NCBI GenBank assembly: GCA_963665295.1
Contig: OY762209.1
Coordinates: 2,432,001-2,496,000, forward strand
Length of the DNA stretch: 64,000 bases
DNA from: Syntrophorhabdaceae bacterium
Lineage (GTDB): Bacteria; Desulfobacterota; Syntrophorhabdia; Syntrophorhabdales; Syntrophorhabdaceae
Direction: 5' to 3'
A program made the translations under genes and the position numbers. Each line of letters begins with the position of its first letter. The stretch's first letter is position 1. Shown here one piece after another: positions 2,783-60,753 of the stretch. The notes below the pieces were generated by a model. The model was not told the DNA's origin, did not search any database, and worked only from the letters and a program-made list of their open reading frames with translations.

Positions 2783-3388
2783 GGGGTAAGGAAGTGTGGG
2801 GTTGATTAATGTCGGCGGGAGGGAAGGGAATAAGGCCGGAAACTTAGTTCACTTACTCATCGGGATCCGTTGTTTGGCGGGGCAGGGAGAACCCCTCTTT
2901 CACCCCCGCGCGCCGACGCTCCAGGCAGAGAAAACTTGGCGTGAAAATCCCCGGCGAATGCCACCCCCCATCCCCCTAGAATTCGAGGGGGCTCTCTACC
3001 TCGCCAGGGATTTTCGCTGAGTTTTCTTGACTGCCCTCCGCAATGCACGCAGGGGTGAAAGAGGGATTCTCCCTCATGAGGGTTTTCGAAGGTGCGGCAT
3101 GAAGCGGGGAGATCAAGAAGCAACAGCTGGACGGGATCAGCCTCCGAGGCGGTCGAGAATTCTTAAACTAATCTTCGCGAGACTGACATACTGTTGGCAG
3201 TAGGGCTGTGGTAAATCAACGTAAAGCGACGACATGCAGTACGGTTCGGTCCACTTTATGATTGAAATACCCGACAGAGGGGAGCAGAATTGAAGAAGAA
3301 GGGAACAGGCAAGTCAAACGGTTCAAATGAACGGGTTTTCTCCGGCCGGACTTTACCGGAGCGAGACCAAAGCCAACCGCCGCCACAA

Positions 3389-5959: not shown

Positions 5960-5973
5960 GTGAAGGAGGGGAT

Positions 5974-7614
5974 ATGAATGTTGCCTTTGATGCATGGATA
6001 CCGGTTGTAATCACCGGAGGCAAACCGCACTTGGCAAGCCTTTGCAGTGTGTTCACCGAGGGAGATCAATACGCCGACCTCGCGGTGCGCCCCCACGAAA
6101 GAGTCGCCTTAATGCGACTCTTTCTCTGTGTCGCTCATGCCGCGCTCGAGGGGCCTAAGAATGACGAAGGATGGTGCGATGTCCCAAAAAGACTACCTGG
6201 AGCGGCGAGAGATTATCTTAAAACGTGGGAAGATTCTTTCGAGCTTTTCCATAAGACCAAGCCATGGTTGCAGGTGGCTGAATTAAAGGGGGTCGAAACG
6301 AGCGGTCCTGATTCCAGAAAGACCTCGCCGGTCGCACTTCTTGATTTTGAATTGGCAACAGGAAACAACTCGACTCTTTACGACCACGAAGGTTCCTTGA
6401 TCTCTCGTCACGTTGATCTCGAACGAGTCGCCCTGAATTTGCTGACGTTTCAGAACTTTTCCTCCGGGGGCGGTTCACCTGTTGCGCAGTGGAAAATGGT
6501 CGGCACCTCTCAGATAGGCAATCCGGACGCCCCTTGTCTGTCTCAATCCATGGCGCACTGTCTGTTACGCGGAAGATCGTTGGGAGACACTATATGGTTT
6601 AATCTGCCTTCATTCGAGACAATTAAGAGAACATACAGAATGCATTCGTCCGATAAGAAGAAGGGTGATACCTTTGCCGACGTCGCGCTAGGCAGGCCTG
6701 TATGGGAGTCTTTCCCTCAATGGCCCGAAAGCGAGTCGGACGACGCCATCAATGCCACAAGGACTTACCTTGGCCGGCTGGTGCCAATATCTCGATGGAT
6801 TCGTCTTATTCACGGTACGGATCAAATGTATTGCTGTAACGGGTTCAAATACATCACATTCAAAGGCGGGTTTGCTCCGGAGCCTACCTCGGCAAGCCGG
6901 TTGATTACGAAAAAGGATAAGAAAGGAATTGCGACCCAAGAGAGGAGGATTGTAAAGGTGGACCCGTCCAAGGCTTTGTGGCGGGAGTTGTCCTCCCTGC
7001 TCATAAAACGTTCCGCAGATGGAATGGGTGGACCGTTGGCGATGAACAACGCTCCATATGACACAGAGTTCGATTTCCAGGTGTGTGCAATCACACGAGA
7101 CCAAGCCTCTATGGATATTGCCTTGGAGTCCGTATTCAATATTACCCCGGCACTTCAGCGAAATTTATCTTCTTATCAGGCCGAGGTGGCCGGAGGTGAG
7201 AAAGTCATCGGGGCAGAAGGTTACGCTCGAAAACTCAGATGGGCGATAGAGGATTATCGCTCAGCAATTGACAGCGATTGGCAACCTCGTGTCAAGAGAA
7301 CCCAGCCGAAAGAGCGCGAGGCTTTGCGAGACAGGCTAGCGTCAACAGCCCTTATGTCGTATTGGACCACTGTAGAAAGGAATCTTCCGCTCCTTATGGC
7401 GCACATCGAAGCCATCGGCACCGATGCTGCCGTTCCCACCCGCGAAGCATGGCGAAAAACGCTCTTTCGCGCTGCCCATGACGCATATAGAATAGCCTGC
7501 GGACAGGAAACACCACGACAGATGAAAGCGTTTGTTAGAGGGCTACAAAAACTGCAAAAAGTAAAGGACGATACTAAACCAAATACCAACGGAGAAGAGG
7601 AGGAGAAAGAATGA
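5974..7614 (+). CDS. cas8e: Type I-E Cascade large subunit Cas8e (CasA/Cse1)
   Basis: AWIPV N-terminus, FELFH..PWLQ, ATGNNSTLYDH motif; operon position. Confidence 0.9.
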   Translation: MNVAFDAWIPVVITGGKPHLASLCSVFTEGDQYADLAVRPHERVALMRLFLCVAHAALEGPKNDEGWCDVPKRLPGAARDYLKTWEDSFELFHKTKPWLQVAELKGVETSGPDSRKTSPVALLDFELATGNNSTLYDHEGSLISRHVDLERVALNLLTFQNFSSGGGSPVAQWKMVGTSQIGNPDAPCLSQSMAHCLLRGRSLGDTIWFNLPSFETIKRTYRMHSSDKKKGDTFADVALGRPVWESFPQWPESESDDAINATRTYLGRLVPISRWIRLIHGTDQMYCCNGFKYITFKGGFAPEPTSASRLITKKDKKGIATQERRIVKVDPSKALWRELSSLLIKRSADGMGGPLAMNNAPYDTEFDFQVCAITRDQASMDIALESVFNITPALQRNLSSYQAEVAGGEKVIGAEGYARKLRWAIEDYRSAIDSDWQPRVKRTQPKEREALRDRLASTALMSYWTTVERNLPLLMAHIEAIGTDAAVPTREAWRKTLFRAAHDAYRIACGQETPRQMKAFVRGLQKLQKVKDDTKPNTNGEEEEKE

Positions 7615-8108
7615 GCCGACTTCTTGAAGAACTGCGCAAGTGCAAGGCGCAAGATGATCGGGGGATGATGGCTGATCTTCGATGTATACTTGTTGATAGT
7701 AAGAAACACCGCGCCTGGCCCGCATTAAACCGCCTGGGGGTGCCGATCAACGAAGAGGTCTCGTCGTTTATTGCCGGACTTTACGCTACCCATCCCGATG
7801 AAACGTCCAGCGGAAATTTCGGCACAACCTGTAGGGTGATTAAACAGAGGCGGGATGACAGTGGACGTGACGACAGCAAACTAACCCCAACTGAACGGCG
7901 ATTCCAGCACTTGCTGGCTGCTGAACGTGGCGGAGAACTGCACGCGCGAATTCTAAGGATGGTCCTGATCGCAAAAGCAGAGGGTGTTCCGGTTAACTAT
8001 GCCCGGCTGGAGACCGACCTCAGAAGAAATGATGATTGGAGAAAAACAGAATGGGCGACCTCTTTCTGGATGCAAGACAAAACGCCTGGGCCTGAGGGGG
8101 CTCTATGA
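7611..8108 (+). CDS. cas11: Type I-E Cascade small subunit Cas11 (CasB/Cse2)
   Basis: ADLR, GNFG, ERRFQHLL, VNYARL, WATSFW motifs. Confidence 0.9.
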   Translation: MSRLLEELRKCKAQDDRGMMADLRCILVDSKKHRAWPALNRLGVPINEEVSSFIAGLYATHPDETSSGNFGTTCRVIKQRRDDSGRDDSKLTPTERRFQHLLAAERGGELHARILRMVLIAKAEGVPVNYARLETDLRRNDDWRKTEWATSFWMQDKTPGPEGAL

Positions 8109-8824
8109 GTTGGCTCGCACGTTTGGAAGTTGATGCAAAGACAATTCGCAATCAAGGTATTTCGGATGACGTTTACACATGGCACAAGATGTTGTGGGAC
8201 TGTTACCCGAATTCACCGGACGCCGAGCGCGATTTCCTGACACGGATTGACCACCTTGAAGGAGCATACCGATTTTGGGTTATGGCCAAACGCAAGCCGG
8301 CTTGTCCCAAATGGTGCCCGGCTGATGGTTTTTCTCTCAATGAGATCAGGTCATCCTTCCTCAGTTATCGCTACTATGCCTTTGACGTGCGTGTCAATCC
8401 CACGAAATGCATAGCCCAAAAGGGTCCCGGCGGAGAAATCCTTTTTCAAAGGGACTCAAACGGAGAAATCCTACGCAATGCTGATGGAAGGCCAAAACGG
8501 AAACACGGAAAACGCGTGCCCTTGATGAAACCAGATGATTTGCGCGCATGGCTGATTCGCAAGGGGAGAGTACGCTGCACGAAAGATGGTAACGACACGC
8601 CGGGAGGATTCAGGGTCCTGGATGAAAAGCCGCTCGAAATCAGTCCCATGGTCGAGAATCATTTCCGCAAGAAAGGGCATACGGGTTATCACGGAGGAGT
8701 TCAGTTTCGCGGGGTTTTGGAAGTTACCGACCGCGAAAAGTTTGTTGAAACCTACGAATGCGGTCTGGGCAGCGCCAAAAGCTTCGGCTTTGGCCTGTTG
8801 CTTCTTGCACCGGTAAGCATATAA
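8105..8824 (+). CDS. cas6e: Cas6e crRNA endoribonuclease
   Basis: YTWHKMLW N-terminal His, RVNPT, Gly-rich GLGSAKSFGFGLL. Confidence 0.93.
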   Translation: MSWLARLEVDAKTIRNQGISDDVYTWHKMLWDCYPNSPDAERDFLTRIDHLEGAYRFWVMAKRKPACPKWCPADGFSLNEIRSSFLSYRYYAFDVRVNPTKCIAQKGPGGEILFQRDSNGEILRNADGRPKRKHGKRVPLMKPDDLRAWLIRKGRVRCTKDGNDTPGGFRVLDEKPLEISPMVENHFRKKGHTGYHGGVQFRGVLEVTDREKFVETYECGLGSAKSFGFGLLLLAPVSI

Positions 8825-8845
8825 AAGACGATAAGGAGAATTCAC

Positions 8846-10120
8846 ATGAAACATATGGAATTGCACATCATTCAGTCCGTTCCTGTAGCCTGTCTTAATC
8901 GTGACGATCTCAACTCGCCCAAAACGGCAGTTTTCGGGGGCGTTCAGCGGGCGCGCGTTTCCAGCCAATCCTGGAAGCGGGCTATTCGGGAGACGGCGGA
9001 AAAGGAAGTCGATGCCTCTGGTCAATTTCGGGGGAAGCGTAGCCGCCTGTTTATTGAGAAAATCTCTTCGGCGCTCCAGGCTTTGGGGGAGGGTGAAATC
9101 ACCGCTCGTGCCCTGGCTATTTGCGTCGGCCATTATCTCGCAAAACTCGATCCGAAACAGGAGGGAAAAGTAAAGACTCTCGTGTTTCTTTCACCGCTGG
9201 AATATCAAATACTTGCAAAGGCCCTTTTTGTTTTGGATGACGACGCAAAAAAGACTTTGGTATCGGCTGTCGGCTCTGTGGACATATCAAAATTGGCAAC
9301 CGATGATGACAATAAAGAAGAAGGCGAGGACGATAAAGCCGAGAAACCAAAAAAAGGTGAGAACAAACTGTCTGCCAAAAAGTTCACTCAGTTGGTAGCC
9401 AGAATCATGAAATCTCCGATAGAAAAGGCATTCAGGGGAGAAAAGAAAGAACTGAAAAGCCTTCCTAAAGATGCCGCCGACATTGCCCTTTTTGGCCGCA
9501 TGGTCGCCAACGATCATTCTTTGACGGTCGAAGCCGCTTCTATGTTTTCGCATGCGCTGTCAACGCACAAGGCAGATAATGAAATCGACTTCTTTGCCGC
9601 CGTGGATGACTTGCAGCCAAAAGATGAATCGGGAGCAGGTATGACCAGCACGTTAGAGTTCAATTCCGCCACATACTATCGTTTTGCCGCCCTCAATCTC
9701 GACATGCTTGCCGATGCAGATCACCTCAAGGATTTGACTTGGAAAGAGCGGCAAGAGGTGGTGCGCACCTTCGTGGAAGCAACCATAAAGGCGGTTCCCG
9801 GAGCTCGTATGAACACCATGAACAGCAATACGCTCCCTGCCTATGTGCTCGGCGTGGTGCGAGAAAAGGGCCATCCGATCCAATTGGTCAATGCCTTCGA
9901 AGCCGCAGTGCGCCCTTCGGTGAGAGGCTTCGTTGTTGACTCCGTAAACAGGATGAATATCGAGTATTCAGATCTTAAGGATACGTGGGGCATTGACTCC
10001 GTCTTTGCAAAGGCGGTCGCAAAGGGAAACCTGAAAAACGCCATTAAAGATGATCTTGGCGCCATCGAAACTTGTTCGCTGGACGATCTCATTAACGGGA
10101 TGGTGGCTCATGTCATCTGA
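8846..10120 (+). CDS. cas7: Cas7 backbone subunit (CasC)
   Basis: CLNRDD..SPKTA, RARVSSQSWKRAIR, ADIALFGRM, DFFAAVDD. Confidence 0.95.
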   Translation: MKHMELHIIQSVPVACLNRDDLNSPKTAVFGGVQRARVSSQSWKRAIRETAEKEVDASGQFRGKRSRLFIEKISSALQALGEGEITARALAICVGHYLAKLDPKQEGKVKTLVFLSPLEYQILAKALFVLDDDAKKTLVSAVGSVDISKLATDDDNKEEGEDDKAEKPKKGENKLSAKKFTQLVARIMKSPIEKAFRGEKKELKSLPKDAADIALFGRMVANDHSLTVEAASMFSHALSTHKADNEIDFFAAVDDLQPKDESGAGMTSTLEFNSATYYRFAALNLDMLADADHLKDLTWKERQEVVRTFVEATIKAVPGARMNTMNSNTLPAYVLGVVREKGHPIQLVNAFEAAVRPSVRGFVVDSVNRMNIEYSDLKDTWGIDSVFAKAVAKGNLKNAIKDDLGAIETCSLDDLINGMVAHVI

Positions 10121-10805
10121 CAAGTCTTTCCTGGCTCTTCGCTTGCAGGGTCCCCTTCAATCGTGGGGGTTTGACGGCCAGTACAGCCGCCGCAATACCG
10201 GTCTGATACCCACCAAAAGCGCCATCGGCGGGATGTGCTGCGCGGCGCTCGGTTGGTCGCGGGGCAGCAGAGAAGAGGAGAACTTTCTCGCATTATTCGG
10301 GGATATACGGATGACCGCCATCGTCATTCCAAGAATCAGGTCCGGGAGACAGATGCCGGTTCGTCGGCTGCAAGACTATCATACAGTACAGAATACTAGA
10401 ACCGCGGACGGCAAAACCAAAGATTGCCACATTACTCGTCGGCAATATCTCACAGACGCATGTTTCGGGATTCTTCTTGACGGCGACACAAGTCTGCTAA
10501 GCCGGATAGCCGCAGCTCTTGCCGACCCAATTTGGGGGATATGGCTTGGCCGCAAGGCATGCATCCCGTCGGCCCCGGTCCTTGCGGGATTGCGGAACAA
10601 TCGGGACGATGCGCTATGTCTCCTCATCGGCGATACGCCTGTCGAATCGTTTACACGGCAGGAAGAGGTCGAAGACTTCGCGGAGGGTCACGATTCCCTC
10701 CCGGATGCACCAGTTTCGTTTGCCGTGGGAAAAAGGTTGTTCTCGCCAAGAAGAGTGCGAACACTGCAAGGAGCAGCACGGCCACAGTATGACGGGAATC
10801 AGTAA
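10110..10805 (+). CDS. cas5: Cas5e (CasD)
   Basis: LQGPLQSWG, PTKSAIGG, DYHTV, RQYLTDA, LGRKAC.PS; ATG at 10110 overlaps the cas7 end. Confidence 0.93.
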   Translation: MSSDKSFLALRLQGPLQSWGFDGQYSRRNTGLIPTKSAIGGMCCAALGWSRGSREEENFLALFGDIRMTAIVIPRIRSGRQMPVRRLQDYHTVQNTRTADGKTKDCHITRRQYLTDACFGILLDGDTSLLSRIAAALADPIWGIWLGRKACIPSAPVLAGLRNNRDDALCLLIGDTPVESFTRQEEVEDFAEGHDSLPDAPVSFAVGKRLFSPRRVRTLQGAARPQYDGNQ

Positions 10806-10837
10806 GATGAAGAGTAACGGCTTCGAAGGGTGGTAGA

Positions 10838-11290
10838 ATGGAGTCTCACATAGCCGTTTTCAAAAGCAAGGAAATAGAAAGGACGATTCATAGGAACGAG
10901 TGGTGGATTGCTGTCCGGGAAGAGCTTACCGATGAGTGGAAGAAACGAGATGTGCGCCTGGAACAGGAGTACACAATTCTCACGGCGGAGATTGCAGGAG
11001 CGGCTTTAGGGGTTACTCCCGATGAGCATAGGGAGTTGAAGGGCCGGAAACGTCGGAACCTACGTGACCACGTGACCGATCTCGAACTGATCTTCTCCAT
11101 ATTAGGAGAACCAGCCACGACCAAGATAACAGGGATTGAAGATGCAAAGGGACTCTAAGGAAACGAACAGGCTGCTCGTAAAGGTGGAGAACCGGCAGGT
11201 GCGGCAAGAAGAGACCTCGAAGAAGAGACGGGCAAACCTGGTGTGGCGCCTGAGAATTACCTTCAGGGCCACAAGGATCGAAGAAGATAA
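10838..11290 (+). pseudogene. Decayed Bro-N/phage antirepressor-like gene
   Basis: IAVFKSKEIERTIHRNEWW joins directly to ELTDEWK...NLRDHVTDLELIFSILGE (middle missing); the C-terminal KGG..AGAARRDLEEETGK lies in another frame. Confidence 0.6.
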
Positions 11291-11305
11291 AAGGGAAGTG
11301 ATGCC

Positions 11306-12518
<1,213 letters not shown>

Positions 12519-12580
12519 AATTTGTTGGTAGAAGTTTGCTCTTTGACAATTGACCTTTATTTCCAGCGGTTGCAAGAAAT
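12519..12580 (+). promoter_or_regulatory. CRISPR leader
   Basis: AT-richer stretch between cas2 and repeat 1, with a GTTGGTAG motif and an IHF-like TTTCCAGCGGTTG near the first repeat. Confidence 0.7.
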
Positions 12581-14075
12581 ATGTTCCCCGCATACGCGGG
12601 GATGAACCGTACAGGTCACTTTCCAATAAGGGACCGCAGGGATGTTCCCCGCATACGCGGGGATGAACCGCCACCCGGCCCACCCGGCCACAGGGACCGA
12701 GGATGTTCCCCGCATACGCGGGGATGAACCGGTTGAGCACCAGGCCACATTATATAAGCTGACATGTTCCCCGCATACGCGGGGATGAACCGACAATCCG
12801 GGCGATTTACGCGCGCGTGGGCGGATGTTCCCCGCATACGCGGGGATGAACCGGTAGAAATCGGCATAGGGGCAGGGGTGACGACATGTTCCCCGCATAC
12901 GCGGGGATGAACCGGCTCCTGCCATTCGGGGCAAAAGCAATTCCGGATGTTCCCCGCATACGCGGGGATGAACCGTTTCATTTGAATTTGAGATAGATCA
13001 GGTCCCGATGTTCCCCGCATACGCGGGGATGAACCGGCATTCGGCTCCATGTCGGACGCCCTTTCTGAATGTTCCCCGCACACGCGGGGATGAACCGCCA
13101 AGGAAAACGGTCTTGTGGTGGTCTTTGGAATGTTCCCCGCACACGCGGGGATGAACCGGCAGCGTGCTGGGCCTGCATTTTGTTGAAGGAATGTTCCCCG
13201 CACACAAGGGGATGAACCGATGTGCTACAAGTAAGGGCATGGGGAAAGAGAATGTTCCCCGCACACGCGGGGATGAACCGTGAGCATACCCATTTATCAG
13301 GCACTCAATGAGATGTTCCCCGCACACGCGGGGATGAACCGGCGAGGGCGTAGGGCCATACTTTACGGGCAACATGTTCCCCGCACACGCGGGGATGAAC
13401 CGGGCCGGGAAATATTTATCAGCCTGCGGGACGTATGTTCCCCGCACACGCGGGGATGAACCGCCTCGACACCGCCTTTGACGGCACCAGTTCCACATGT
13501 TCCCCGCACACGCGGGGATGAACCGCCATCTTCGGGGTGGTCTTCTTCTCATGGCTCATGTTCCCCGCACACGCGGGGATGAACCGGCCATGGAAGGCGT
13601 GGGCTACGAACCGGGCATCATGTTCCCCGCACACGCGGGGATGAACCGATACTGGGGATTGTATGACGATGGACGTTCAGATGTTCCCTGCACACGCGGG
13701 GATGAACCGGTGTGGGCCGCGAAAATGGCGTGGGAATGCCGATGTTCCCCGCACACGCGGGGATGAACCGTTAAACACGGCGTACCCTATCTACGTTACA
13801 GAATGTTCCCCGCACACGCGGGGATGAACCGCGGCAGTAGTTGTAGGCGACCTGTGCTTTGTAATGTTCCCCGCACGCGCGGGGATGAACCGGACCCGTC
13901 AATTCCCAATGCTTACTACGTTCAATGTTCCCCGCACACGCGGGGATGAACCGTCACCAGGAATAAAACGGGTCGGGGCGGTTTCACGTTCCCCGCACAC
14001 GCGGGGATGAACCGATGTACGCCGGTCTCGACAGCGAGATCATCAAATGTTCCCCACACACGCGGGGATGAACCG
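12581..14075 (+). CRISPR. Type I-E CRISPR array, 25 repeats (29 bp ATGTTCCCCGCAYACGCGGGGATGAACCG), 24 spacers (32-33 bp)
   Basis: Counted repeats at 61-62 bp period from 12581 to 14047; variant repeats 11, 19, 22, 24, 25. Confidence 0.98.
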
Positions 14076-14569
14076 AGGTCCGCTCTGTTGAGGAGGGAAA
14101 GGGCATCCCTGATGCTGTTGCTGGATATGACGCGGTGTGGTGGGACACCGAAGACCCGCCCTCGTGTATGTGTCGGCAGGGCCGGAACGGACATCGAGAT
14201 TGTCGTTAGGGTAAGCTATAAAGTGAAAGGGCAGCAGGACCCTGTCAAGCTCTATACGACCGCGGGAAAGGTCCAGCGACAAGCCCTCGCAACTAAAAGA
14301 TATTAGCTTATAGGGGGAAAATCGTGATGGGGCTGGAGGGGCGCCACATCCCTCATAGGGCGGTTGGCTCTGACTTTGTCAAGGCCTCGTGTCCAACTGG
14401 CCACGGCGACTTTCCAGTTGTCAGCCTCATCACTGGAAATTATACCACAGCGAAAGGATGTGTCAAATGACCCTCCGGATAAGGGCTGAGATCAAGGACG
14501 AGGAGCTAAGAGATTTCCTCCGAAACCCGGAGGAAAGGGCCGCGAACCCTGCCCCGGCAATGAAAGAGG
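14076..14569 (+). pseudogene. Decayed Mu-like phage head-morphogenesis fragments (MuF C-terminus, then gpG-like N-terminus)
   Basis: Frameshifted reading AVWWDTEDP/ALVYV/IEIVVRVSYKVKG...TTAGKV, then MTLRIRAEIKDEELRDFLRNPEERAANPAPAMKE cut off by a repeat; family call by motif recall only. Confidence 0.5.
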
Positions 14570-14598
14570 ATGTTCCACGAGCACGCGGGAATGAACCG
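14570..14598 (+). repeat. Orphan degenerate CRISPR repeat
   Basis: ATGTTCCACGAGCACGCGGGAATGAACCG, 25/29 identical to the array repeat with an intact 3' handle. Confidence 0.85.
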
Positions 14599-15127
14599 CG
14601 ACTGGGCAACCGAGAAGTTGTAATCCTTGACCGCGCAACTCCTCCCCGTTGCCTTTTCCGAAAACTGTTCCATATTTCCGGGTCGGTGTCCCCTTATCCT
14701 TTTCGGAATGCCGGGCTGCGAAAAGGATCACAGAAGAGACACAAAGCAGGGCATCCCGGAGGTGACGCTCCTGACTGTAGACTATTTCATCTGGGACGAA
14801 TTACAGGTGGAGGACAACCTCAGGGAGATCTTCGCGAAAGGGAAAGAGGAAAAGAAGGCAGTGCCTCCCATAGAGGCCGTAGACAAGGAGACGTCGGATT
14901 TCATCCACAATGAAGTCAGGGACAAACCGGCGGATATCGGTACACGGCTCGGGTTCGCCGGCCGGACGGAGCGCAAGGTAGCCGAGGGCGTCGGCTTCCC
15001 ACCCGTCTGGTTCCAGGGGATGCAGGAGATCAGGGTTCTTTTAACATCGATTATCTGCTAGACTTCTATCGAAGGTTTGGTGAATATACTGCCACTGCTA
15101 TTGCAGAATAAACGGGAGGGGCTTTTT

Positions 15128-17122
15128 ATGGATTGGGGGGCTGCGAAGAGGTATTTTTTCCTAAGGGACGGATTCAGAACAGTTGTCCTGGGGGTCTTTG
15201 TCTGTTCGATTCTTATTCTTACCTCCGTCACGGCCTTTTCCGGGTCGGACGGGGGTTTGTCGGCGAGCGGGCCGCGTCGGCTTGTCTTTAGAGCGGACCC
15301 GAACCTGTCGAGTTCGACCGTGGAGCCGCCTGCGGGATTTCTTGAGGAGCGGGCGAGGGGCCTCAGGTTGTCAAGGACCCAGTTTGCGATAACCTATGCC
15401 GCCAAAGGCGCCAAGCACAGCGAGTACGAATGCGGGGAATGGCCCGCGCAGGCCAAGGAAGCCCTTAATTACGCCACGGACATATGGGCATACTATCTCC
15501 GCTCCACGCCGAAGATAAATATCGAGACATGCTGGGTTGTGAGCGGTATGGATGCCGATACTCTCGGAACTGCGGATGAACCCGATTTCCGTCACGATTT
15601 TGCAGGAGCCAAAAAGCAGAAGACCTGGTATACCATTGCCCTTGCGAACAGCCTTCACGGGTCTGATCTCCAGCCCGGCCACACGGACATGTACCTTTCC
15701 TACAACAGCAAATTTGGATGGTACTTCGGCACGGACGGCCAGGTGCCCGACGGCAAATACGACTTCGTGTCCGTGGTCCTCCATGAGATCACCCACGGTC
15801 TCGGCATGTTCGGTACCGCGAGTGTCGACGGGAAGACGTTGAATGGAAGCTGGGGGAAAAAGGACGGCACAAACAATTATCCCGATGCATGGGACGGCTT
15901 TATCGAAAACGGGAACAAGCAAAGTCTCGTCGATACTCAGGTATTTGCCAACCCTTCCGAGGCGCTTGCGAAAGAGCTTACGGGACAAAACCTTTTCTTC
16001 AACGGTCCGGGCGCGACACAGGCGAACGGCGACAAAACCGTCAAGATATATGCGCCTGCAGAGTGGAAAGACGGTTCGAGCTATTCGCACCTCGATGAAC
16101 AGACCTTCAAGGACTCGGAAGATTCCCTCATGATTCCTGCCATCGAACCGAAGAAGTACAAGCACTCCGCGGGTCCGGTGATCCTCGGTATCCTCAGCGA
16201 TATGGGTTGGACGGCTACCGCGTATACCCTTAATGTAGTCATGGCAGGCAACAAGAAAGGGTCCGTCAAGGCGACGGGCCTTACATGCGGGAGCAATTCC
16301 ACGTGCAAAGGAGGCTATCAGAAGGGGGAGACGGTGGACATCACCGCCACCGCTACCTCGGGCTCCGTCTTTTACGGCTGGACCGGGTGCACTTCCGTGA
16401 GCGGTTCCGTCTGCCGTGTGACGATGAACGGGTCTATGACCGTCACCGCCACATTCGATTCCCGGCCTGCGGCCTCGGTAAGTCCCGGGTCCATCAACTT
16501 CGGAGCAACCGACATTGCGGGTCCCTTCACCTCCAGGAAGATCACCGTCACGAATAAGGGCACCGCGACCCTCAACATCACTTCCGTGGCCGTTTCCGGA
16601 GCCTTTGAGGCCCGGAGTAACGGCTGCACCAGCCTCGCGGGGAATGAGACCTGTACGGTGGAGGTCGCCCCCAAGCCGGAGAGTGCAGACTCCTATGGCA
16701 CAAAAACAGGGAAGGTCGTGATGACGTCAAATGACCCCCATTCACCGGATACGGTAAAACTGTCGGTGAACTTTTCACCTCCCAATATCTCGGCGCCTTC
16801 GACAGTAAACTTCGGCACCGAACCCATCGGCGATTCCGATACGAAGACGATTACCGTAAAGAATACGGGTGTATCCACCCTTACACTCACCAACATAAGC
16901 CTCAGGAATTCGAGTTCGGCCCTTACGCTGCATTCCAGCGGGTGCGCGGACCTTACGAAGAACGCGCACTGCAACATGTCGGTTGAATTCACCCCCGAAG
17001 ATACGACCCAGGTGACCGACTATATCGACATCACCTCGAATGATCCGGACTACAGCGGAAAAGTGAAGACTATTACCGTCACCGGCAGGGGAGTGGAGGC
17101 AAAGAGAAAGACAGGGAAGTGA
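15128..17122 (+). CDS. Secreted zinc metalloprotease with InlB-like repeat and Ig-like (choice-of-anchor D type) domains
   Basis: Signal/TM segment, HEITHGLG (HExxH), YAP.EWKDGSSYSHLD, FYGWTGC repeat, two NFG...ITVxNxG Ig modules. Confidence 0.75.
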   Translation: MDWGAAKRYFFLRDGFRTVVLGVFVCSILILTSVTAFSGSDGGLSASGPRRLVFRADPNLSSSTVEPPAGFLEERARGLRLSRTQFAITYAAKGAKHSEYECGEWPAQAKEALNYATDIWAYYLRSTPKINIETCWVVSGMDADTLGTADEPDFRHDFAGAKKQKTWYTIALANSLHGSDLQPGHTDMYLSYNSKFGWYFGTDGQVPDGKYDFVSVVLHEITHGLGMFGTASVDGKTLNGSWGKKDGTNNYPDAWDGFIENGNKQSLVDTQVFANPSEALAKELTGQNLFFNGPGATQANGDKTVKIYAPAEWKDGSSYSHLDEQTFKDSEDSLMIPAIEPKKYKHSAGPVILGILSDMGWTATAYTLNVVMAGNKKGSVKATGLTCGSNSTCKGGYQKGETVDITATATSGSVFYGWTGCTSVSGSVCRVTMNGSMTVTATFDSRPAASVSPGSINFGATDIAGPFTSRKITVTNKGTATLNITSVAVSGAFEARSNGCTSLAGNETCTVEVAPKPESADSYGTKTGKVVMTSNDPHSPDTVKLSVNFSPPNISAPSTVNFGTEPIGDSDTKTITVKNTGVSTLTLTNISLRNSSSALTLHSSGCADLTKNAHCNMSVEFTPEDTTQVTDYIDITSNDPDYSGKVKTITVTGRGVEAKRKTGK

Positions 17123-17214
17123 AGGTGACTGAATGCAGCAAGGAGGAAGGCCTCCCTTGAACCGACGTGAGCCGGTCTCACGAGAGGCCTTCCCTGAACA
17201 GAAAAAAACTGTCC

Positions 17215-18321
17215 TTATTTTTTGAAGACCAGCATCGTTGAAGTCTGGTTGATGTGCCCGAGGTAGGCTTCACCATAGGTGCTGAACCCTATTGTCGGTA
17301 TGTTGTCGAAGATCGCCCCATACGCTTTGCACCGGTCTTTCTGCGTAAGCTCAAGAGTTCTGAGGATGCAGTGGAAATTGATGATGCCTTCCACGTCTCC
17401 GAGGGCCTTCAACTTCTCTTCAACGGCCTGTTTTGTGTCATTCACAATATCGGTGGATTCCAGGACCTTCAGTTCCATTCCTTCCTTGATGTTGCAGTAG
17501 AAGACCATGCCGGATCCCTGCGTTTGCTGGGGGCTTCGCACATATGGTTCATCGCCGACCATAAGCCCCACAGGATTAGTCATGAAATAGTCCGCCGCCT
17601 CACCGGGTTTCGCGCCGAGGGCCAATTCGTAAGCTTCTGTCGCGGGCACGTTATTGAAGGATATTACCTTCCTGCTCGCCTCATCTACTTCTGTTGCAGT
17701 GAGTGTTTTATCGAGGACGCGAAAACTCTGCGTCTTGATCACGTCGAAGCCGTTGGGGACTTGAAGCAGGGCTACGACCGCCGCGTTTGAATAGGCTTTT
17801 CCGTCAGCAAAGACATGCGTTTTTTTAAACGCGAGGTCATCGCCTGCCGAACCGCCGATGAAAGTCACATCCGTGAGGTCTCCTATTTTATCCATAAGTT
17901 TTTCCTCGGCAGCCGTAAGCCCGTCCGCGAGGATGATGCCCACAAATCTTTCGATATCCAGGGAAGCCATGGGTGTCTTGTGGTGCTCTTCAAACTTTTG
18001 AAACGCAAGGGGGATACGGTTTTCCGTGATGATGTTTTCGACGACCTCGATTGCCGCGTCCGCGACTGTTTCGTTATCGAGGGCCATGGCCACAACCGAG
18101 TTCTTCAGCATCTGCCCCGATATAATCTCTCCGGCCGTGGAGCATCCGAAAACGGAGGCGCCTTGAAAAACAGCGTGCATGTCGCTGCTCAGCCTGTCGG
18201 GATCGTGCATTGAAGAGGCGAAGTAAAGGACCATGGTTGCCTCGAAATTGCCCAGTTGTCCTCTCAGGTCTTTTGCGACATGGTCGATACCTTTCGTGGA
18301 ATGAACTGTTTTGATTGACAT
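17215..18321 (-). CDS. FIST N/C domain signal-transduction protein
   Basis: GCSTAGEI, GGSAGD, CILR, GFSTYGE..HINQT. Confidence 0.88.
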   Translation of the reverse strand: MSIKTVHSTKGIDHVAKDLRGQLGNFEATMVLYFASSMHDPDRLSSDMHAVFQGASVFGCSTAGEIISGQMLKNSVVAMALDNETVADAAIEVVENIITENRIPLAFQKFEEHHKTPMASLDIERFVGIILADGLTAAEEKLMDKIGDLTDVTFIGGSAGDDLAFKKTHVFADGKAYSNAAVVALLQVPNGFDVIKTQSFRVLDKTLTATEVDEASRKVISFNNVPATEAYELALGAKPGEAADYFMTNPVGLMVGDEPYVRSPQQTQGSGMVFYCNIKEGMELKVLESTDIVNDTKQAVEEKLKALGDVEGIINFHCILRTLELTQKDRCKAYGAIFDNIPTIGFSTYGEAYLGHINQTSTMLVFKK

Positions 18322-18333
18322 AGGTCTACCTCC

Positions 18334-40639: not shown

Positions 40640-40713
40640 GCGCCCGTAGCTCAGTTGGATAGAGTGTTGGCCTCCGAAGCCAAAGGTCGTGCGTTCAAAT
40701 CGCACCGGGCGCG
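40640..40713 (+). tRNA. tRNA-Arg(CCG)
   Basis: Acceptor stem GCGCCCG/CGGGCGC, D arm GCTC..GAGT, anticodon stem TTGGC-CTCCGAA-GCCAA, T loop GTTCAAATC; CCA not encoded. Confidence 0.95.
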
Positions 40714-40752
40714 CTTAATATCATTAGGTTTTATGAAATGGTTTTTATCATC

Positions 40753-52426: not shown

Positions 52427-52966
52427 TTACATTTCCTCCAGAGGAACGGAGGCCTTGAACTTCTGATGGTTTATCCGGGTAAACTTCACGCCGCCTTCCC
52501 TCACCCGGACGAGGTAGGTGTTTTCCTTCCACGTGACGGTGGTGGGGGTTTCCCCGTCGGTCACTGTGGCGTTCTTGGTGGCGGGGAAAGTCGGGGCTGT
52601 CGCTCCGGAGGTGCCCCCCACGGTGCAGATGTAGGAATGGCCGTTCGGGGTCACGGGATGAATGATATCGTCCGCGGTGTACACGTGGTTCGCCTGCCAG
52701 GTATTATCACCGTAGGACTCGTCCCTGTTTCTCCAGTAAAAGGGGACTGAACCCACCTTGCGGGCCTTGAGGAACTTCTCGAAGGTAATTTTCTCCGTGG
52801 GGGTAAGCTCCGTGTCGAAGTCGAACACCTTGGTATCGCGGAACGCGCCCGCCCGGGTCTTCACGTACCCCTTACCCATGGTGGTGCGGCGCGTGGGGTC
52901 GATCAATTGGTCCGAGTTGCCGAAGAACTGGGCCGCGTCGGGAAGGGGATAATCCTCGTAACTCAT
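52427..52966 (-). CDS. Distal tail protein (gpM-like) with inserted small carbohydrate-binding-like module
   Basis: GYVKTR...PFYW...LEEM frame with a WQANHVY...SYICTVGGTSG insert; follows the tape measure. Confidence 0.65.
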   Translation of the reverse strand: MSYEDYPLPDAAQFFGNSDQLIDPTRRTTMGKGYVKTRAGAFRDTKVFDFDTELTPTEKITFEKFLKARKVGSVPFYWRNRDESYGDNTWQANHVYTADDIIHPVTPNGHSYICTVGGTSGATAPTFPATKNATVTDGETPTTVTWKENTYLVRVREGGVKFTRINHQKFKASVPLEEM

Positions 52967-55900
52967 CAGTAGCCCCGTCTGGTCTGGAGGCGTTTGGACA
53001 ACTTGCCGCCCCTGCCTGAATTCTTGAGCACGAATTTAACGACCATCTTTTCCGCCTCGCTGTCCCAACGAGGTTCGTCCTGGGTCATCTCTACATCCTT
53101 GAGCGCCCCCGAATGGTCTTCGAAGACCACGTGGACCGACGGCGTCGCGCCCAGCTTGTCGAGGTTGGGGATAACCCGGCCGCCCGTGTTGGGGATCATC
53201 AGTTCGGGACGGTTCTCGCCCACGATCATGGGCATGCCCGCTTCGTAGATCCCGCCGGCGTCGAAGTGAAACCAATCCCATACGTCACCGAAGGGGTCCC
53301 ACCCGTTCGTGCCGGAGAAATAGCCCAGGGGGAAGCCGAATTGACTCCACCAGCCGAGGCGGCTGATGTCCTCGAAATTGCCGCTTGTGGCGCTCCCGAA
53401 GGTATCCCCAAGGCCCGACCAATCGTCGTGAATGGAGCCGGATAGTATCCCCGCTCCTTTATCTCCCAGGTATTCACGACCAAGGACCCCGGCAAGGACC
53501 GATCCACCGGTAATCCCTGCGCCGCCGCCCAATCCTCCGAGGAACCCTTCACCGCCGCCTCCCCCGCCGAAAAGGCTTGACAACCACGACCACATCCCGC
53601 CGCCGTCAGTGCCGCCCATGCCCGTTTCCCATGTGCCGTAGTTGGCGGGATCAGAGAAGGCGGCTTCATATCCGGTAGGCACTCCCGCGGCCCATTCGCC
53701 GTAATTGGCGGGGTTGTTGAACGTACCTTCCCAACCGGTAGCCCCTTCCGAGGTGGGCCATGTGCCGTAATTGTACTCGCTGTAGAATTCGGGGCCCACT
53801 TTCGAGGAGGGGCCGAACATCTGATTGTAAAGGTTGTACAGACTCTTCCCGTTCTTGTAGAGCTTGTGCAACTGCTGGACGGAGGCCAGGGGGTTGTTGC
53901 CGGCGTCGTTACCGCCCAGGGACGAGAGGCCCGAGCCGATACCCATGAGGGAGGAAAGCCACCCGCCGCCTGAACCTCCGCCTCCGAACCAACTGCTGAA
54001 CCAACTCGAAGATCCTTCTTCGCCTGAAGGCCAGGTGCCATAGTTCCCGGCGGCGTCGAACCTGCCCCAGTCCCGGTCACCGTTGCCCGTTGAGCCCGGC
54101 TTGAGGGAGTCAGACAAGTCCTTGATGCTGCCGGACAGACCTTCCGTGGACTGGTCCGTAATCGACCTGTCCGAGGAGCCGACGAGGGCGGTGGTGAGAT
54201 TCCGGAGGGCCTCGGTATTCTCTTTCGTGGCGAGGAACGCCTCCGCGTCACGGGCGGTGGTCGGTTGGGCGGGTGATTTCATGCCGAGGAGGCTGTAAAG
54301 GGTGTCCTTCGCCTGTCCCACGATAAGCTCGGCTCCCGCCTTTGCGAAAAGACGCCTGAAGGCGTTGTTGAGGCTCTCGATCTTGTACTCCGAAGGGGAA
54401 TAGAGATAGTCTTCAAGGTTCTTCTCAATCGACTGAGCCATGCCCTTGGAAAGTTCCTCGGCCGTCTGGAATGTGGATCTCATTTCGTAGACGTAGTCAC
54501 GGAGACCGCGTGAAAGGCCGTCGCCAAATGAACCCGTCTGCTCCTTGAGGGAGAGTTGGAGGTCCATGATCTGTTTTTCCGTGTTCGCGATCTTGTCAAG
54601 GAGGGTGATCTTGGCGATGTCATTCCCCGAATCCATGGCCGCCTGGAGGCTTGACCGGTAGGTGTCGAGGAGGCGCTGCTCGGCGGCGATCTTTTCCGAG
54701 TAGATGGCGGCCTTAGGGACGGTCCGGTCCTTCTCCATGATGTCGAGGGAGGCGAGGCGGCGGCGTGTCTCGGATTCGAGGACGTTCCGATCGTTCTCCT
54801 GCAGGATACGGGCCTTATTCGCGGCGGCGATCTTACGGAACCTCGACAGCTCCTCCTCCGCCTCTTCCTCTGTTTTCACATATTTCATGGCCTGGCGGCG
54901 CATCTCTTCGACCCACTTGTCCTCAAGGACGAGGCGCTTGTTGATCTCCGAGGCCTGCTTCTCGGTGACGCTCTCCTGGGTCTTGCGCCATGCTTCTTCA
55001 CTGTCCCTGCGGAGCTTTTGTTCTTTTTCGTACATTTCGATCCGCGCTGAATCTTCGATGTAGGCGTTTGCCGTGGCCACGACCGAGTTGACCTTTCCCT
55101 TATCCATCCCGCTTTCTATCAGCTTCTGAGCCTGGCGGTCGATCTCGTTCATTTTCTTCGCCTGCTCGGTAAGGGCGGGGTTAAGGTTTTCGATCTGGAC
55201 AAGCCAGTTTTTGTACGTTTCCGCGAGTTGTTCTATCTTCCCCTTGCTCTTCTCCGCGTCGATGCGGGCCTTGAGGGCGGCGTTTTCCTCCTCGCGCTGC
55301 GTCGTGAGGTAGGCGGCATAGGCTTTCTTGTCGTCTTCGGTGATGCCCGGTTCGTAGCCCACGCCTTCCATGGCCTTGCGGGCGTCCGAGTCGTCCTGTC
55401 GCCTGCCGTAGGGGGTCACGCCGTAAGTGCCGGCGGGGCGGGTGATCCTTCCTCTACCCTCCGCCGTGTCCATTGCCGCCGCGAAGTCCCTGATGGCGCC
55501 GATGCCTCCACCTACGATGGTGACAATGAGCTTGCCTATCTCTTCCCGGGTCTGGGAGATGTGGGCCCGGTGCCGCTGAAGCACTTCGGAGACGGAATCG
55601 GTCTGCACCCCCATCTCGGCGCTGGCGATCTGAGCGTTACGGTACGCCATCTGAAGGAGATTGACATCGTCTATTCCGAGTTGTGTCGCCTTGTTGAGAA
55701 GGCCCATTTCCTCACGGGTAATGAGGCCGAAGCGGCGCATCGCACGAGGAATGTCGTTCGCGATGGAATCGGCGATCGATTCATAGGCGTCCTTTACATC
55801 GACTCCCTGACGGCGCGCGGCTGTCCGGGCCATCTCGCCGATCTGGACCATACCCGCCGGGTCGATATCCTGAGTGACGCCCTTGAGGGCCTTTTGCATG

Positions 55901-56382
55901 AGGTCGCTGTCGTCGATGGTCCCCGCCGTGGCCCGCTTCATGGCTGCCACGATGGCGTCCGCCGAGAAATCCATGGACCGGGCCGCGTGGCCGAAGGCCT
56001 CCTCTACCTGGAGCGCCTTTGCGCCTATTTCCGTGAATTCCTTTCCCTTGTTCACCGCCACCATGGCGGAGGCGATCCCTGCGGAAAGGGCCAGCCAGTG
56101 CGACTTGATCTGGGAGATGATGCCCGTCTGGTTGCCGAGCAGTTCCTGGTTGAGCCGGGCTATTTCCTTGTTTTTCGCCAGTTCCGCCTGTCTTATTTCC
56201 GCGGCGGAGGCGAGGCCCGAAGCCTTGATGGTATCGTAGGCGGCGGTGACGTTGCCTTTCTGGGCGTTGATGTCGGCGACGGTGGACGTGTTGAGGGTTT
56301 TGTAGGCGGACCCAACCTCTTTCGTGACAGCGATCGCCCGGGAACCGTCGGCGCTGATGATGAGTTTTACTTCATTTGCCAT
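52966..56382 (-). CDS. Tail tape measure protein
   Basis: 1138 aa, helical/coiled-coil, MANEVKLIISA start, C-terminal GG...VGENRPEL..P...G. Confidence 0.9.
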   Translation of the reverse strand: MANEVKLIISADGSRAIAVTKEVGSAYKTLNTSTVADINAQKGNVTAAYDTIKASGLASAAEIRQAELAKNKEIARLNQELLGNQTGIISQIKSHWLALSAGIASAMVAVNKGKEFTEIGAKALQVEEAFGHAARSMDFSADAIVAAMKRATAGTIDDSDLMQKALKGVTQDIDPAGMVQIGEMARTAARRQGVDVKDAYESIADSIANDIPRAMRRFGLITREEMGLLNKATQLGIDDVNLLQMAYRNAQIASAEMGVQTDSVSEVLQRHRAHISQTREEIGKLIVTIVGGGIGAIRDFAAAMDTAEGRGRITRPAGTYGVTPYGRRQDDSDARKAMEGVGYEPGITEDDKKAYAAYLTTQREEENAALKARIDAEKSKGKIEQLAETYKNWLVQIENLNPALTEQAKKMNEIDRQAQKLIESGMDKGKVNSVVATANAYIEDSARIEMYEKEQKLRRDSEEAWRKTQESVTEKQASEINKRLVLEDKWVEEMRRQAMKYVKTEEEAEEELSRFRKIAAANKARILQENDRNVLESETRRRLASLDIMEKDRTVPKAAIYSEKIAAEQRLLDTYRSSLQAAMDSGNDIAKITLLDKIANTEKQIMDLQLSLKEQTGSFGDGLSRGLRDYVYEMRSTFQTAEELSKGMAQSIEKNLEDYLYSPSEYKIESLNNAFRRLFAKAGAELIVGQAKDTLYSLLGMKSPAQPTTARDAEAFLATKENTEALRNLTTALVGSSDRSITDQSTEGLSGSIKDLSDSLKPGSTGNGDRDWGRFDAAGNYGTWPSGEEGSSSWFSSWFGGGGSGGGWLSSLMGIGSGLSSLGGNDAGNNPLASVQQLHKLYKNGKSLYNLYNQMFGPSSKVGPEFYSEYNYGTWPTSEGATGWEGTFNNPANYGEWAAGVPTGYEAAFSDPANYGTWETGMGGTDGGGMWSWLSSLFGGGGGGEGFLGGLGGGAGITGGSVLAGVLGREYLGDKGAGILSGSIHDDWSGLGDTFGSATSGNFEDISRLGWWSQFGFPLGYFSGTNGWDPFGDVWDWFHFDAGGIYEAGMPMIVGENRPELMIPNTGGRVIPNLDKLGATPSVHVVFEDHSGALKDVEMTQDEPRWDSEAEKMVVKFVLKNSGRGGKLSKRLQTRRGY

Positions 56383-58092: not shown

Positions 58093-59361
58093 TTACTGGG
58101 CGTAACCGGCTACTTTATTCGCCACGGTCCAGATACACGAGCCGTACGTGTCGTCCTGCAGTATCTGGATGTCTCCGGCTTCGGCGATCTGCTTGCCGTT
58201 TATCTTGAAATCGTCCGTGAGGACGTTGCACCTCGGAAAGATACCTTCCACATAGTAGTTCTTCCCGGTCTCAAACTCCGCTCCGGTGGCCTTCACGTAG
58301 GCCCCGAAATATTCGTTGTTCTTCATGAGCTGCTGAAGAATCGTGTCCCGGCTCTGGCGGTCGAGTTTGAGGAACTGCCGCCTGCCGTCGCGCTGCGCGT
58401 AATTGGCGTAGGTTCCCGTGCCTCCGGGGCGGAACTCCACTTTCATCTGGTTGTCGAGGCTGTATTCCACGGACTCTATTTCCGCGTCGATGGTGTGGCC
58501 TCCGAGGAAGGATGTGCCATTCCATTTGCCGCCGAGCTTCATGACCAGGTCGGACACCCTGAGGGGCGATTCCGTTACCCGGGCGGGGAATGTCATCCAG
58601 CCGCTTTCCGTGGGCACGTAGGTGATCTTGAAATTGCACGCGGTGTGCGTGCCGCCCGGAGCGGTCATGGTGATCACGGCGGGGGAGGCGTCCGAGGCGG
58701 CGCTGAACACCACGTCCTTCCATTCCAGGGTGCTCGGCACCTGAACCCTGATCTGGTGGATGCTGTCCAGTCTCGCCGTCGCTGTGGCGCCCTGAACTCC
58801 GTTCGCGGCAAGGGTAAGGGATGTAGCGTCGTAGAACCCGCTCACCGTCTCCTCGATCACGTTGTCCGTATACTTGCCGGTACCCACAATGGAAGCGGAG
58901 AGCTTCGCCCACGAGTCCTTTGCAAAGGTCATGGTGACTTTATCCACGAGACAGGAAGCGAGCCTCCTTTTAAGGATGGTCGCCCCGAGGCGCTGGGCGG
59001 CGGTAAAAAATGGATTATTCATGTCCGTCGTGGGGGTGATGACATGCTTGTAGCCCGTCCCCCAGGCGGCCGGGGTGTCAATGCCAAGGGCATAGGCGAG
59101 GATGAAACCCGCGTGCTGGGCCTGCATCTTTTCAAAGGAAAATGTTCCTTCCACAGTGGCCCCGAGGTCGTAGAGCATGTCTGCTTCTTCCATGCCATTG
59201 GCCTCGTTGGAATTGTCCTCCCGGCGCGTCTTGAGCTTCAGGATACTTGATATCTCCATGAGCATGGCCGTGTCGAGGGTCTGCTCCGTGTTGATGGCTG
59301 CCTCCCTGAGCAACGCGGAGACTGCGAAAAGGATATTGTTCGCAAGGTAGTTTCTACTCAT
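58093..59361 (-). CDS. Major tail tube protein
   Basis: 422-aa beta-rich protein with GYKHVITP motif, upstream of chaperones and tape measure. Confidence 0.7.
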   Translation of the reverse strand: MSRNYLANNILFAVSALLREAAINTEQTLDTAMLMEISSILKLKTRREDNSNEANGMEEADMLYDLGATVEGTFSFEKMQAQHAGFILAYALGIDTPAAWGTGYKHVITPTTDMNNPFFTAAQRLGATILKRRLASCLVDKVTMTFAKDSWAKLSASIVGTGKYTDNVIEETVSGFYDATSLTLAANGVQGATATARLDSIHQIRVQVPSTLEWKDVVFSAASDASPAVITMTAPGGTHTACNFKITYVPTESGWMTFPARVTESPLRVSDLVMKLGGKWNGTSFLGGHTIDAEIESVEYSLDNQMKVEFRPGGTGTYANYAQRDGRRQFLKLDRQSRDTILQQLMKNNEYFGAYVKATGAEFETGKNYYVEGIFPRCNVLTDDFKINGKQIAEAGDIQILQDDTYGSCIWTVANKVAGYAQ

Positions 59362-60413: not shown

Positions 60414-60753
60414 TGGTCCCCTCCGGGGTTATCTTGATCGCGCCGGGCTTGACGTCCTTCGTGCCCGTCTTGAGGGTGTCTATTTTCTTGTTCTTCGATA
60501 ATGTCCGGTCCTTAATTTTAAGCCGGTCGTCACAGCCTTTCAGGGCGTCCTTCACTTCCTGTCGGAGACTTCCGATCGTGGCCTCCTGAGAGGCGTTCGC
60601 GTCCTGGCAGGTTTTGAGGTCCGAACGGGCGACTTTGATGTCGGCCTGATACCCTTTTATCCTCATTTGCTGGACGTAAGCGGCAATGAGGACGCCCGCC
60701 ACAAAGGCGAGGGCGTAGGGCAAGACCTTGCGGGCAACGGTTATCCAGTCCAT
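60280..60753 (-). CDS. Inner-membrane spanin-like protein (Rz-like)
   Basis: N-terminal TM plus coiled coil, adjacent to the endolysin block. Confidence 0.65.
   Translation of the reverse strand: MDWITVARKVLPYALAFVAGVLIAAYVQQMRIKGYQADIKVARSDLKTCQDANASQEATIGSLRQEVKDALKGCDDRLKIKDRTLSKNKKIDTLKTGTKDVKPGAIKITPEGTNEKNGNNSTGDELLDWLNRMYPADGAGGENGIHPAAGPVPSAGT

Follow-up and report, generated by a model that had tools for sequence, protein, structure and literature searches.

One resident prophage matched by spacers of two CRISPR systems in a Syntrophorhabdaceae genome: a lead towards new inhibitors or a shared cas switch

The stretch of DNA analysed here (the window; 64,000 nucleotides from a Syntrophorhabdaceae bacterium, assembly GCA_963665295.1) corresponds to bases 2432001-2496000 of a single contig of 5,508,164 bases (OY762209.1). 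It holds a type I-E CRISPR locus with its cas genes and, further along, the left part of a prophage integrated in a tRNA-Arg gene. Together with a type I-C system elsewhere in the genome, this locus converges on that one prophage, which carries three perfect targets flanked by a protospacer-adjacent motif (PAM), matched by spacers 17, B9 and B10, and two near-perfect ones, matched by spacers 24 and 13. The recognised cas genes of both systems are open, the prophage has clear borders, and no known inhibitor was found in it by family scans. The features at the centre of the argument are the following:

12581..14075, plus strand: type I-E array, 25 repeats (29 nucleotides, nt) and 24 spacers (32-33 nt)
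13587..13619, plus strand: spacer 17, 33/33 to the prophage tape-measure gene, AAG PAM
55342..55377, minus strand: spacer-17 protospacer (55374-55342) with its AAG PAM (55377-55375), from the match and inspection of its flanks
52966..56382, minus strand: tail tape-measure gene, 1138 aa, from homologue names/PF09718 and synteny
40640..40714, plus strand: tRNA-Arg(CCG), ARAGORN; Rfam 69.5 bits
40715..64000, minus strand: left 23 kb of the prophage, with tail fibres, J-like fibre, tape measure, tube, lysis and head genes

Spacer 17 (33 nt) is identical over 33/33 positions to the minus strand of 55342-55374; allowing up to three mismatches, the window holds only two matches to it, its own site and this one (0 mismatches), and 0 of 100 shuffled versions gave such a match. 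The trinucleotide AAG lies directly 5' of the protospacer on the minus strand, and the repeats that border the spacer, at 13558 and 13620, equal the consensus 29-mer. The protospacer is read in frame within the open reading frame (ORF) 52966-56382, where it encodes residues 337-347 (AMEGVGYEPGI). That ORF has no Pfam, PHROG or NCBIfam match of its own. The closest homologue from outside, at 36% identity over 58% of the query (E 4.7e-98), bears the name of a lambda-family tail tape measure protein; PF09718 is present in 5 of 19 homologues, this one included. In gene order, the tail-tube gene and two small ORFs come before the ORF, and a J-like central fibre gene comes after it. The original prediction, made from the sequence alone, had reported the match, its PAM, the canonical repeats and the tape-measure target, and all of these are borne out, the last by homologue names and synteny rather than by a direct Pfam match. 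A perfect match, a consensus PAM, open cas genes and a target on the same replicon in the assembly therefore coincide at spacer 17. An exact search for the 33-mer, both among JGI metagenome contigs and in IMG/VR, gave no match.

As a self-target, however, spacer 17 does not stand alone: at least five strong self-matches come from two CRISPR systems, and spacers 13 and 24 and the type I-C system had escaped the original prediction. When all 24 type I-E spacers were searched against the genome by BLAST, further spacers and sites came to light, with positions beyond the window given as window-equivalents:

13342..13373, plus strand: spacer 13, 28/32 to the prophage, AAG PAM
60704..60738, plus strand: spacer-13 protospacer (60707-60738) with its AAG PAM (60704-60706), in a 157-aa lysis-region ORF
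14015..14046, plus strand: spacer 24, 30/32 to a prophage ParB-like gene, AAG PAM
13159..13190, plus strand: spacer 10, related but diverged from a tail-tube gene site in the prophage
58093..59361, minus strand: tail-tube gene with the diverged spacer-10-like site, PF18906, 26.9 bits; 552 homologues

The AAG PAM thus accompanies 3 of the 3 strong type I-E self-matches (spacers 13, 17 and 24). Spacer 13 differs from its target at positions 16, 18, 21 and 24, three of the four being third codon positions. The target of spacer 24 is on the minus strand at window-equivalent 80974-81005, past the end of the window, and its two mismatches (positions 9 and 12) both fall on the third base of a codon. 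Taken together, five of the six mismatches are at third codon positions and none is in the seed. In E. coli, the Cascade seed comprises positions 1-5 and 7-8, and Cascade leaves positions 12, 18 and 24, among others, unpaired. Because the mismatches are mostly at wobble positions and lie outside seed and PAM, the phage would have needed no escape mutations, and the differences look like drift between related phages rather than escape. Spacer 10 is a different case: it shares 25/29 identities with about 59112-59140, and since the PAM-equivalent there is AAA and mismatches fall at positions 1 and 3, within the seed, the site is probably harmless and not competent for interference. Both flanks of this site (59090-59150) resemble the repeat to a degree equalled by 1 in 20000 random flank pairs. 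A captured repeat-spacer unit or a recombination with the array was considered and rejected, as the segment is coding sequence conserved across the tube-protein family, and the repeat-likeness is read as coincidence.

The second system, of type I-C, lies 1.27 Mb away (genome 1161672-1176922; L008:1030-9923), with an array of 94 repeats and 93 spacers (1161672-1167845) beside a complete operon of cas3, cas5c, cas8c, cas7, a four-helix-bundle ORF, cas4, cas1c and cas2. Two adjacent spacers of this array, B9 and B10, match the tRNA-Arg prophage over 34/34 positions each, at sites 350 bases apart in a DAM-like/GNAT gene. TTC, the type I-C consensus PAM, in agreement with PMC7708048, lies next to both, and hence on 2 of the 2 perfect type I-C self-matches. 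The B9 34-mer has no exact match in JGI metagenome contigs, and of 400 other genomes in the phylum, 6 have relatives of the DAM-like/GNAT protein (at most 45% identity, partial matches). As a chance control, ten sets of 117 shuffled spacers were used: none reached 28 identities or more, and one reached 25.

The machinery that would act on such matches looks functional. The type I-E genes run in the order cas3, cse1, cse2, cas6e, cas7, cas5, a 106-aa ORF, cas1, cas2 and array, which differs from the order familiar from E. coli:

3290..5959, plus strand: cas3 (type I-E), HD nuclease and helicase, NCBIfam cas3_core 206.6 bits, cas3_HD 75.1 bits
5974..7614, plus strand: cse1/cas8e, TIGR02547, 104.1 bits (cut-off 70)
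7611..8108, plus strand: cse2/cas11, TIGR02548, 64.3 bits
8105..8824, plus strand: cas6e, between cse2 and cas7, TIGR01907, 97.5 bits
8846..10120, plus strand: cas7e, TIGR01869, 241.4 bits
10050..10805, plus strand: cas5e, TIGR01868, 120.6 bits
10838..11158, plus strand: 106-aa ORF between cas5 and cas1, no known family
11306..12229, plus strand: cas1e, TIGR03638, 376.4 bits
12204..12518, plus strand: cas2e, TIGR01873, 128.8 bits

All eight type I-E cas ORFs are open, as originally claimed, and every one scores above its NCBIfam cut-off; the earlier account is corrected in that cas6e sits between cse2 and cas7 and the 106-aa ORF between cas5 and cas1. This ORF, followed on its 3' side by a 147-nt gap, has no NCBIfam or Pfam match, and the Atlas places it near unnamed clusters only. 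The real start of Cas3 is probably near residue 34, and the signatures previously ascribed to the protein are retained by both motif check and alignment: HD (93), Walker A (315-322), DEVH (453), SAT (484) and QRLGR, which is motif VI (650), with an alignment to the solved Cas3 4q2c at E 3.9e-85. In the type I-C operon, 7 of the 7 recognised cas ORFs are open, which brings the open cas genes to 15 over both loci; Cas8c, at 134 bits (E 5e-39), is under its family cut-off of 219. The type I-C Cas3 aligns to the solved type I-C Cas3 structures 8zns and 8g9u, keeping its HD motif and matching their DEAQ with DEVQ. In both Cas3 proteins, then, the HD and helicase cores can be aligned with those of solved enzymes, and the motifs are kept. 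The type I-E array is the sole array with its repeat in the genome, and three genomes of the same genus gave no match to the type I-E locus. The four-helix-bundle protein between the type I-C cas7 and cas4 (L008:2997-3575) carries TIGR02436 and a 4helix_suffix domain.

The self-matching spacers are old in both arrays. The type I-E leader (12519-12580) adjoins cas2, which makes spacer 1 the newest; one loop base is T in repeats 1-8 and C in repeats 9-25. In type I-E adaptation, the new repeat is copied from the leader-proximal repeat. The switch from C to T therefore implies that about eight spacers were added afterwards, when spacers 13, 17 and 24 (of 24) were already present. In the type I-C array, variant repeats occur only at the low-coordinate end, which identifies that end as the trailer and makes B9 and B10 numbers 85 and 84 of 93 from the leader. 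No spacer at a leader end matches the prophage, which argues against primed uptake after integration. Leader-distal matches, with none at the leader end, suggest that the phage probably entered a lineage that was already immune and that neither interference nor priming has affected it since.

A third spacer of the type I-C array, B3, bears on the past of that system. It matches the baseplate gene of a myovirus-like prophage over 33/34 positions (genome 3737606-3737639; L020:9464-10201), with the one mismatch at seed position 2 and TGC in place of the PAM, which suggests escape from a once-active type I-C system; the estimated chance that both changes fall in PAM and seed is about 0.02-0.08.

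The prophage itself spans 64.2 kb, from 40715 to window-equivalent 104930. Its left attachment site, attL, is the last 43 nt of the tRNA-Arg gene (40672-40714), and the right one, attR, lies at window-equivalent 104888-104930, an offset of 64216. Genes were assigned by PHROGs, Pfam and NCBIfam together with a codon-usage gene map. Nearly all lie on the minus strand and encode tail fibres, tail, lysis, head, portal, terminase, three ParB-like proteins, a clamp, methylases and a primase. The right end has a divergent AT-rich switch, with a CII/YmfL-like gene on one side of it and the sole plus-strand operon on the other; this operon comprises a cI-like repressor, orf80, orf105, a secreted nuclease and the integrase, and attR comes after it. 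The gene map thereby places early and lysogeny genes beyond 64000, where they had been anticipated. With attachment repeats, integrase, repressor switch, packaging, head and tail genes, the element has the hallmarks of a temperate tailed phage, and it looks complete. An Rfam scan found only the tRNA, the integrase has no relative among the genome contigs searched, and the tape-measure protein has no match in the GenBank phage collection or IMG/VR and gave one chance-level row in the PDB. The phage lineage has hundreds of uncultured relatives, judging by the 552 tube-protein homologues, yet its tape measure is unmatched in two viral collections.

A self-targeting lysogen of this sort belongs to a known, published kind and is not in itself surprising; the present one is a stronger case than first noted. 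According to a published survey of self-targeting (Nobrega et al. 2020, PMC7708048), one fifth of the genomes that have CRISPR contain self-targeting spacers, most of them directed at prophages; the consensus PAM accompanies 37% of type I-E and 44.7% of type I-C self-targets, and known anti-CRISPRs (Acrs) are present in only 10.9% of self-targeting genomes. The case described here is of the same kind as those, with 100% identity, consensus PAM, a type I system, a prophage target and intact cas genes, and among them it ranks as a strong one, as two subtypes give three perfect matches and two near-perfect ones to one prophage. The closest parallel is Xanthomonas albilineans (Wimmer et al., PMC10810201), where AcrIC11 and AcrIF12Xal restrain types I-C and I-F1 in the presence of 24 self-targets. 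Both organisms have two intact type I systems and perfect PAM-flanked self-targets concentrated in one prophage, and in both the self-targeting spacers sit at the old array end with no inhibitor known beforehand. In contrast to X. albilineans, the systems here are I-E and I-C, the strong self-targets number five and the case is known from genes alone; there is also no KlcA-like or AcrIF12-like gene.

The reading that we favour, tentatively and at somewhat below even confidence, is that unrecognised anti-CRISPR function(s) are encoded on this prophage or another mobile element, both their existence and their location being matters we infer. In this model, a temperate phage would have integrated at the tRNA-Arg gene of a host that already held old type I-E and type I-C spacers against it, and the lysogen would survive since interference by both systems is blocked. 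The block would most likely be one or more anti-CRISPR proteins of an undescribed family, which the lysogen expresses from this prophage or from a different resident mobile element. Precedents for breadth exist: single Acrs that block both I-C and I-E are known, many of them acidic (PMC7913775), and dual I-C/I-E inhibitors are also described in PMC10799925. Specifically, AcrIC7*, AcrIC8* and AcrIC6* of Pseudomonas mobile elements (Leon et al. 2021, PMC7913775) demonstrate that a single small protein, often an acidic one, can cover both subtypes present here; unlike those, the prophage shows no recognised homologue, as judged without direct sequence comparison, and no aca1/aca4-type (anti-CRISPR-associated) neighbour.

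Where such a function might lie can be narrowed by position. The cI operon holds the only prophage genes expected to be on in a lysogen, and the best-placed candidates, by position only, are orf80 and orf105, small genes translationally packed behind the cI-like repressor. The former (window-equivalent 102468-102710; isoelectric point 4.6) overlaps the cI stop by four bases, and the latter (window-equivalent 102694-103011) encodes a membrane protein. Next in rank as candidates come small early ORFs at 91062-91845 and the cluster round a DUF6573 gene at 78442-79766 (both window-equivalent). The DUF6573 gene (L001:15278-15766) lies in a ParB/methylase-rich stretch, and its family counts 3794 representatives at E<=0.001; its model is confident (predicted local distance difference test, pLDDT, 91.5) and has no clear fold match (best Foldseek E 0.085, best VIA Z 4.7). 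No mention of DUF6573 was found in the literature.

Several results weigh against an encoded inhibitor. None of 64 prophage proteins matches an NCBIfam anti-CRISPR model and none appeared in the Pfam or PHROGs scans, libraries that are incomplete for Acr families; the original statement that no known acr/aca is recognisable holds for these scans of the prophage. The models for KlcA/ArdB and ArdA (PF03230, PF07275) find nothing genome-wide, and control models do match. Four candidates that were tried have no relative among solved structures in the PDB. The leading one, orf80, is an orphan that retrieves only itself among 5.8 billion clustered proteins, is found in 0 of 400 other genomes of the phylum and has no Atlas match or PDB relative; its single-sequence model is poor (pLDDT 54), its support being position and charge only. 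The suggestion to look for small ORFs beside helix-turn-helix (HTH) genes led to three such genes in the prophage (cI-like, CII/YmfL-like and a 94-aa XRE protein after the primase), none with a small ORF upstream, and there is no classical operon of small ORF followed by HTH gene. Two systems, moreover, need two inhibitors or one broad inhibitor, and the order of events, with the spacers probably preceding integration, is drawn from array position. An RNA-mimic inhibitor, which had also been proposed, is disfavoured, as none of three prophages contains a type I-E repeat-like sequence at up to 7 substitutions or a type I-C one at up to 8; across the genome, the type I-E repeat search gave only two sequences apart from the array: at 14570, next to the array, a decayed copy, and at genome position 4186548, outside the prophages, a site with 7 mismatches. 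The three outcomes originally envisaged were an inhibitor, silent cas genes and Cascade acting as a repressor: their shared premise of target, PAM and open cas genes holds, and the evidence cannot choose among the three.

An unrecognised inhibitor would nevertheless be worth seeking. Self-targeting lysogens are the classical starting point for anti-CRISPR discovery, we know of no characterised Acr from the phylum of this anaerobic host, though no search aimed at this was made, and a full-text search joining self-targeting, syntrophs, prophages and CRISPR returned no literature on this organism. Screening roughly 60 small ORFs could yield new inhibitors of type I-E, type I-C or both, and the locus is a promising place to look for such inhibitors or for one cas switch common to both systems.

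The possibility of a switch arises from a repeated element that lies before both cas operons:

2868..3095, plus strand: palindromic element resembling a miniature inverted-repeat transposable element, 224-228 nt, with terminal inverted repeats; blastn and nhmmer

Both programs find exactly four copies in the 5.5 Mb: in the window at 2868-3095, at L008:10552-10761, at genome 5026224-5026450 (L045) and at genome 2345541-2345764 (L046). The 224-nt form is an imperfect palindrome with a predicted hairpin of -107.9 kcal/mol, and the region 3' of the element folds no better than shuffles. One copy lies 195 nt upstream of the type I-E cas3 ORF and another 629 nt upstream of the type I-C cas3, in the same orientation relative to cas3; of the remaining two, one is found upstream of an ABC transporter and the other between argJ and a parDE pair. 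The original prediction had not noted this shared element.

On the strength of this arrangement, the leading alternative, which we hold to be possible though on balance unlikely, is that expression of both cas operons is absent or too weak under the growth conditions of the organism, leaving the self-targeting without effect. The shared element may be the handle for this, as a regulator site, a hairpin that blocks read-through or an insertion selected for lowering cas expression. That two of four copies stand before the two cas3 genes has, given about 5000 intergenic regions, a roughly estimated chance of <1e-6. Codon usage in both cas loci is poor by host standards and the type I-E locus has a low G+C content, as fits imported and possibly poorly expressed genes, and one mechanism would cover the tolerance of both systems. 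The type I-E system of E. coli K-12, silenced by H-NS, offers a precedent from general knowledge: intact, and harmless as it is untranscribed; the candidate handle here would instead be the palindrome shared by two cas operons. Against silencing, a promoter-like site (3262-3290) lies downstream of the element and before the type I-E cas3, which means that the element need not interrupt the type I-E promoter. The other two copies adjoin the ABC transporter and the parDE pair, and two relatives carry the element on contigs other than those with cas3 (2 copies scored per genome), from which it follows that the element may mark only the edges of acquired islands. The escape pattern at the B3 site and the eight spacers added after the repeat mutation also argue for past activity.

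The inhibitor and silencing readings could meet in a single new switch that disables both type I systems, either a broad inhibitor of a new family or a factor acting via the element upstream of both cas3 genes; we regard this as rather improbable, at about one step below silencing as such. The switch could be an inhibitor from a phage lineage that is common in anaerobic communities and absent from phage collections, or it could be a host or prophage factor. In either form, the element shared upstream of both cas operons is a lead on the co-regulation of two CRISPR systems.

Considerably less probable is that spacers and prophage reside in different cells, the contig having been put together from two coexisting strains, of which one is immune and has no prophage and the other is a lysogen without the spacers. 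Contigs of four DNA runs (X1, X2, X4 and X5) were compared with window positions 1-20000; none of the runs listed for the cas and array stretch is of RNA. Runs X1 and X2 each hold a 9721-base contig identical over 2949-12669, that is, over the cas operon. Array variants with the same repeats and other spacers (12640-14050) are present in all four runs: their depth is low in X1 and X2 and 2-20x in X4 and X5, and the type I-E array thus varies in natural populations. These variants favour a mosaic, as do the source runs themselves, since the samples are mixed and large, each with 1.3 to 11.8 million contigs; no read or contig was seen that joins the array to the protospacer 41 kb away. Set against this, the genome forms one 5.5-Mb contig with 98.1% completeness and 2.4% contamination, the main array contigs of X1 reach about 31x depth versus about 2x for the variants, and a mosaic would require both arrays, 1.27 Mb apart, to be the immune strain's and the prophage alone to be the other's.

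A sub-case of the anti-CRISPR reading, to which we give little credence, holds that an inhibitor blocks Cas3 and leaves Cascade binding intact, such that the self-targeting CRISPR RNAs repress prophage genes. In the X. albilineans study (PMC10810201), both Acrs block Cas3 and not Cascade binding, and expression of the targeted prophage genes was lower; the targets in the present prophage likewise fall in late and early genes. All of them, however, lie inside ORFs and far from promoters, and the sequence gives no sign of binding or repression. Least probable are point mutations invisible at motif level, for although the cas check covered ORF integrity and core motifs only and Cas8c scores under its cut-off (134 vs 219 bits), independent hits in two systems would be required, and cas decay is rare in self-targeting genomes according to the published survey (PMC7708048).

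Returning to the favoured reading, an anti-CRISPR function need not be carried on the targeted prophage. A Mu-like transposable prophage (genome ~5434000-5449000) with transposase, MuB-like, Gam-like and terminase genes is a possible inhibitor carrier. Two type I-C spacers also resemble it: B42 has 30 identities over a 32-nt BLAST match and 31 over its full 36 nt, and B20 matches at 25/28.

Some minor observations concern the array and the tRNA-Arg prophage. About 500 bases beyond the last repeat, at 14570-14598, the decayed type I-E repeat (4 mismatches) lies inside a 174-aa unassigned ORF, and the contigs of run X2 diverge nearby, at 14365-14432. In the prophage, a 36-nt AT-rich direct repeat occurs in two copies 122 nt apart (L001:16505-16540 and 16627-16662) at the end of the ParB-like gene targeted by spacer 24, and these repeats border an 886-nt stretch without a convincing ORF. 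Between two more tyrosine recombinase genes of the prophage (L002:327-1484 and L002:15541-16275) lies a possible nested element of 16 kb, which has a primase, an XRE regulator and a C5 methylase of its own. Finally, the secreted staphylococcal-nuclease-like gene (L010:4016-4642) is co-oriented with the repressor and the integrase and is therefore predicted to be expressed in the lysogen.

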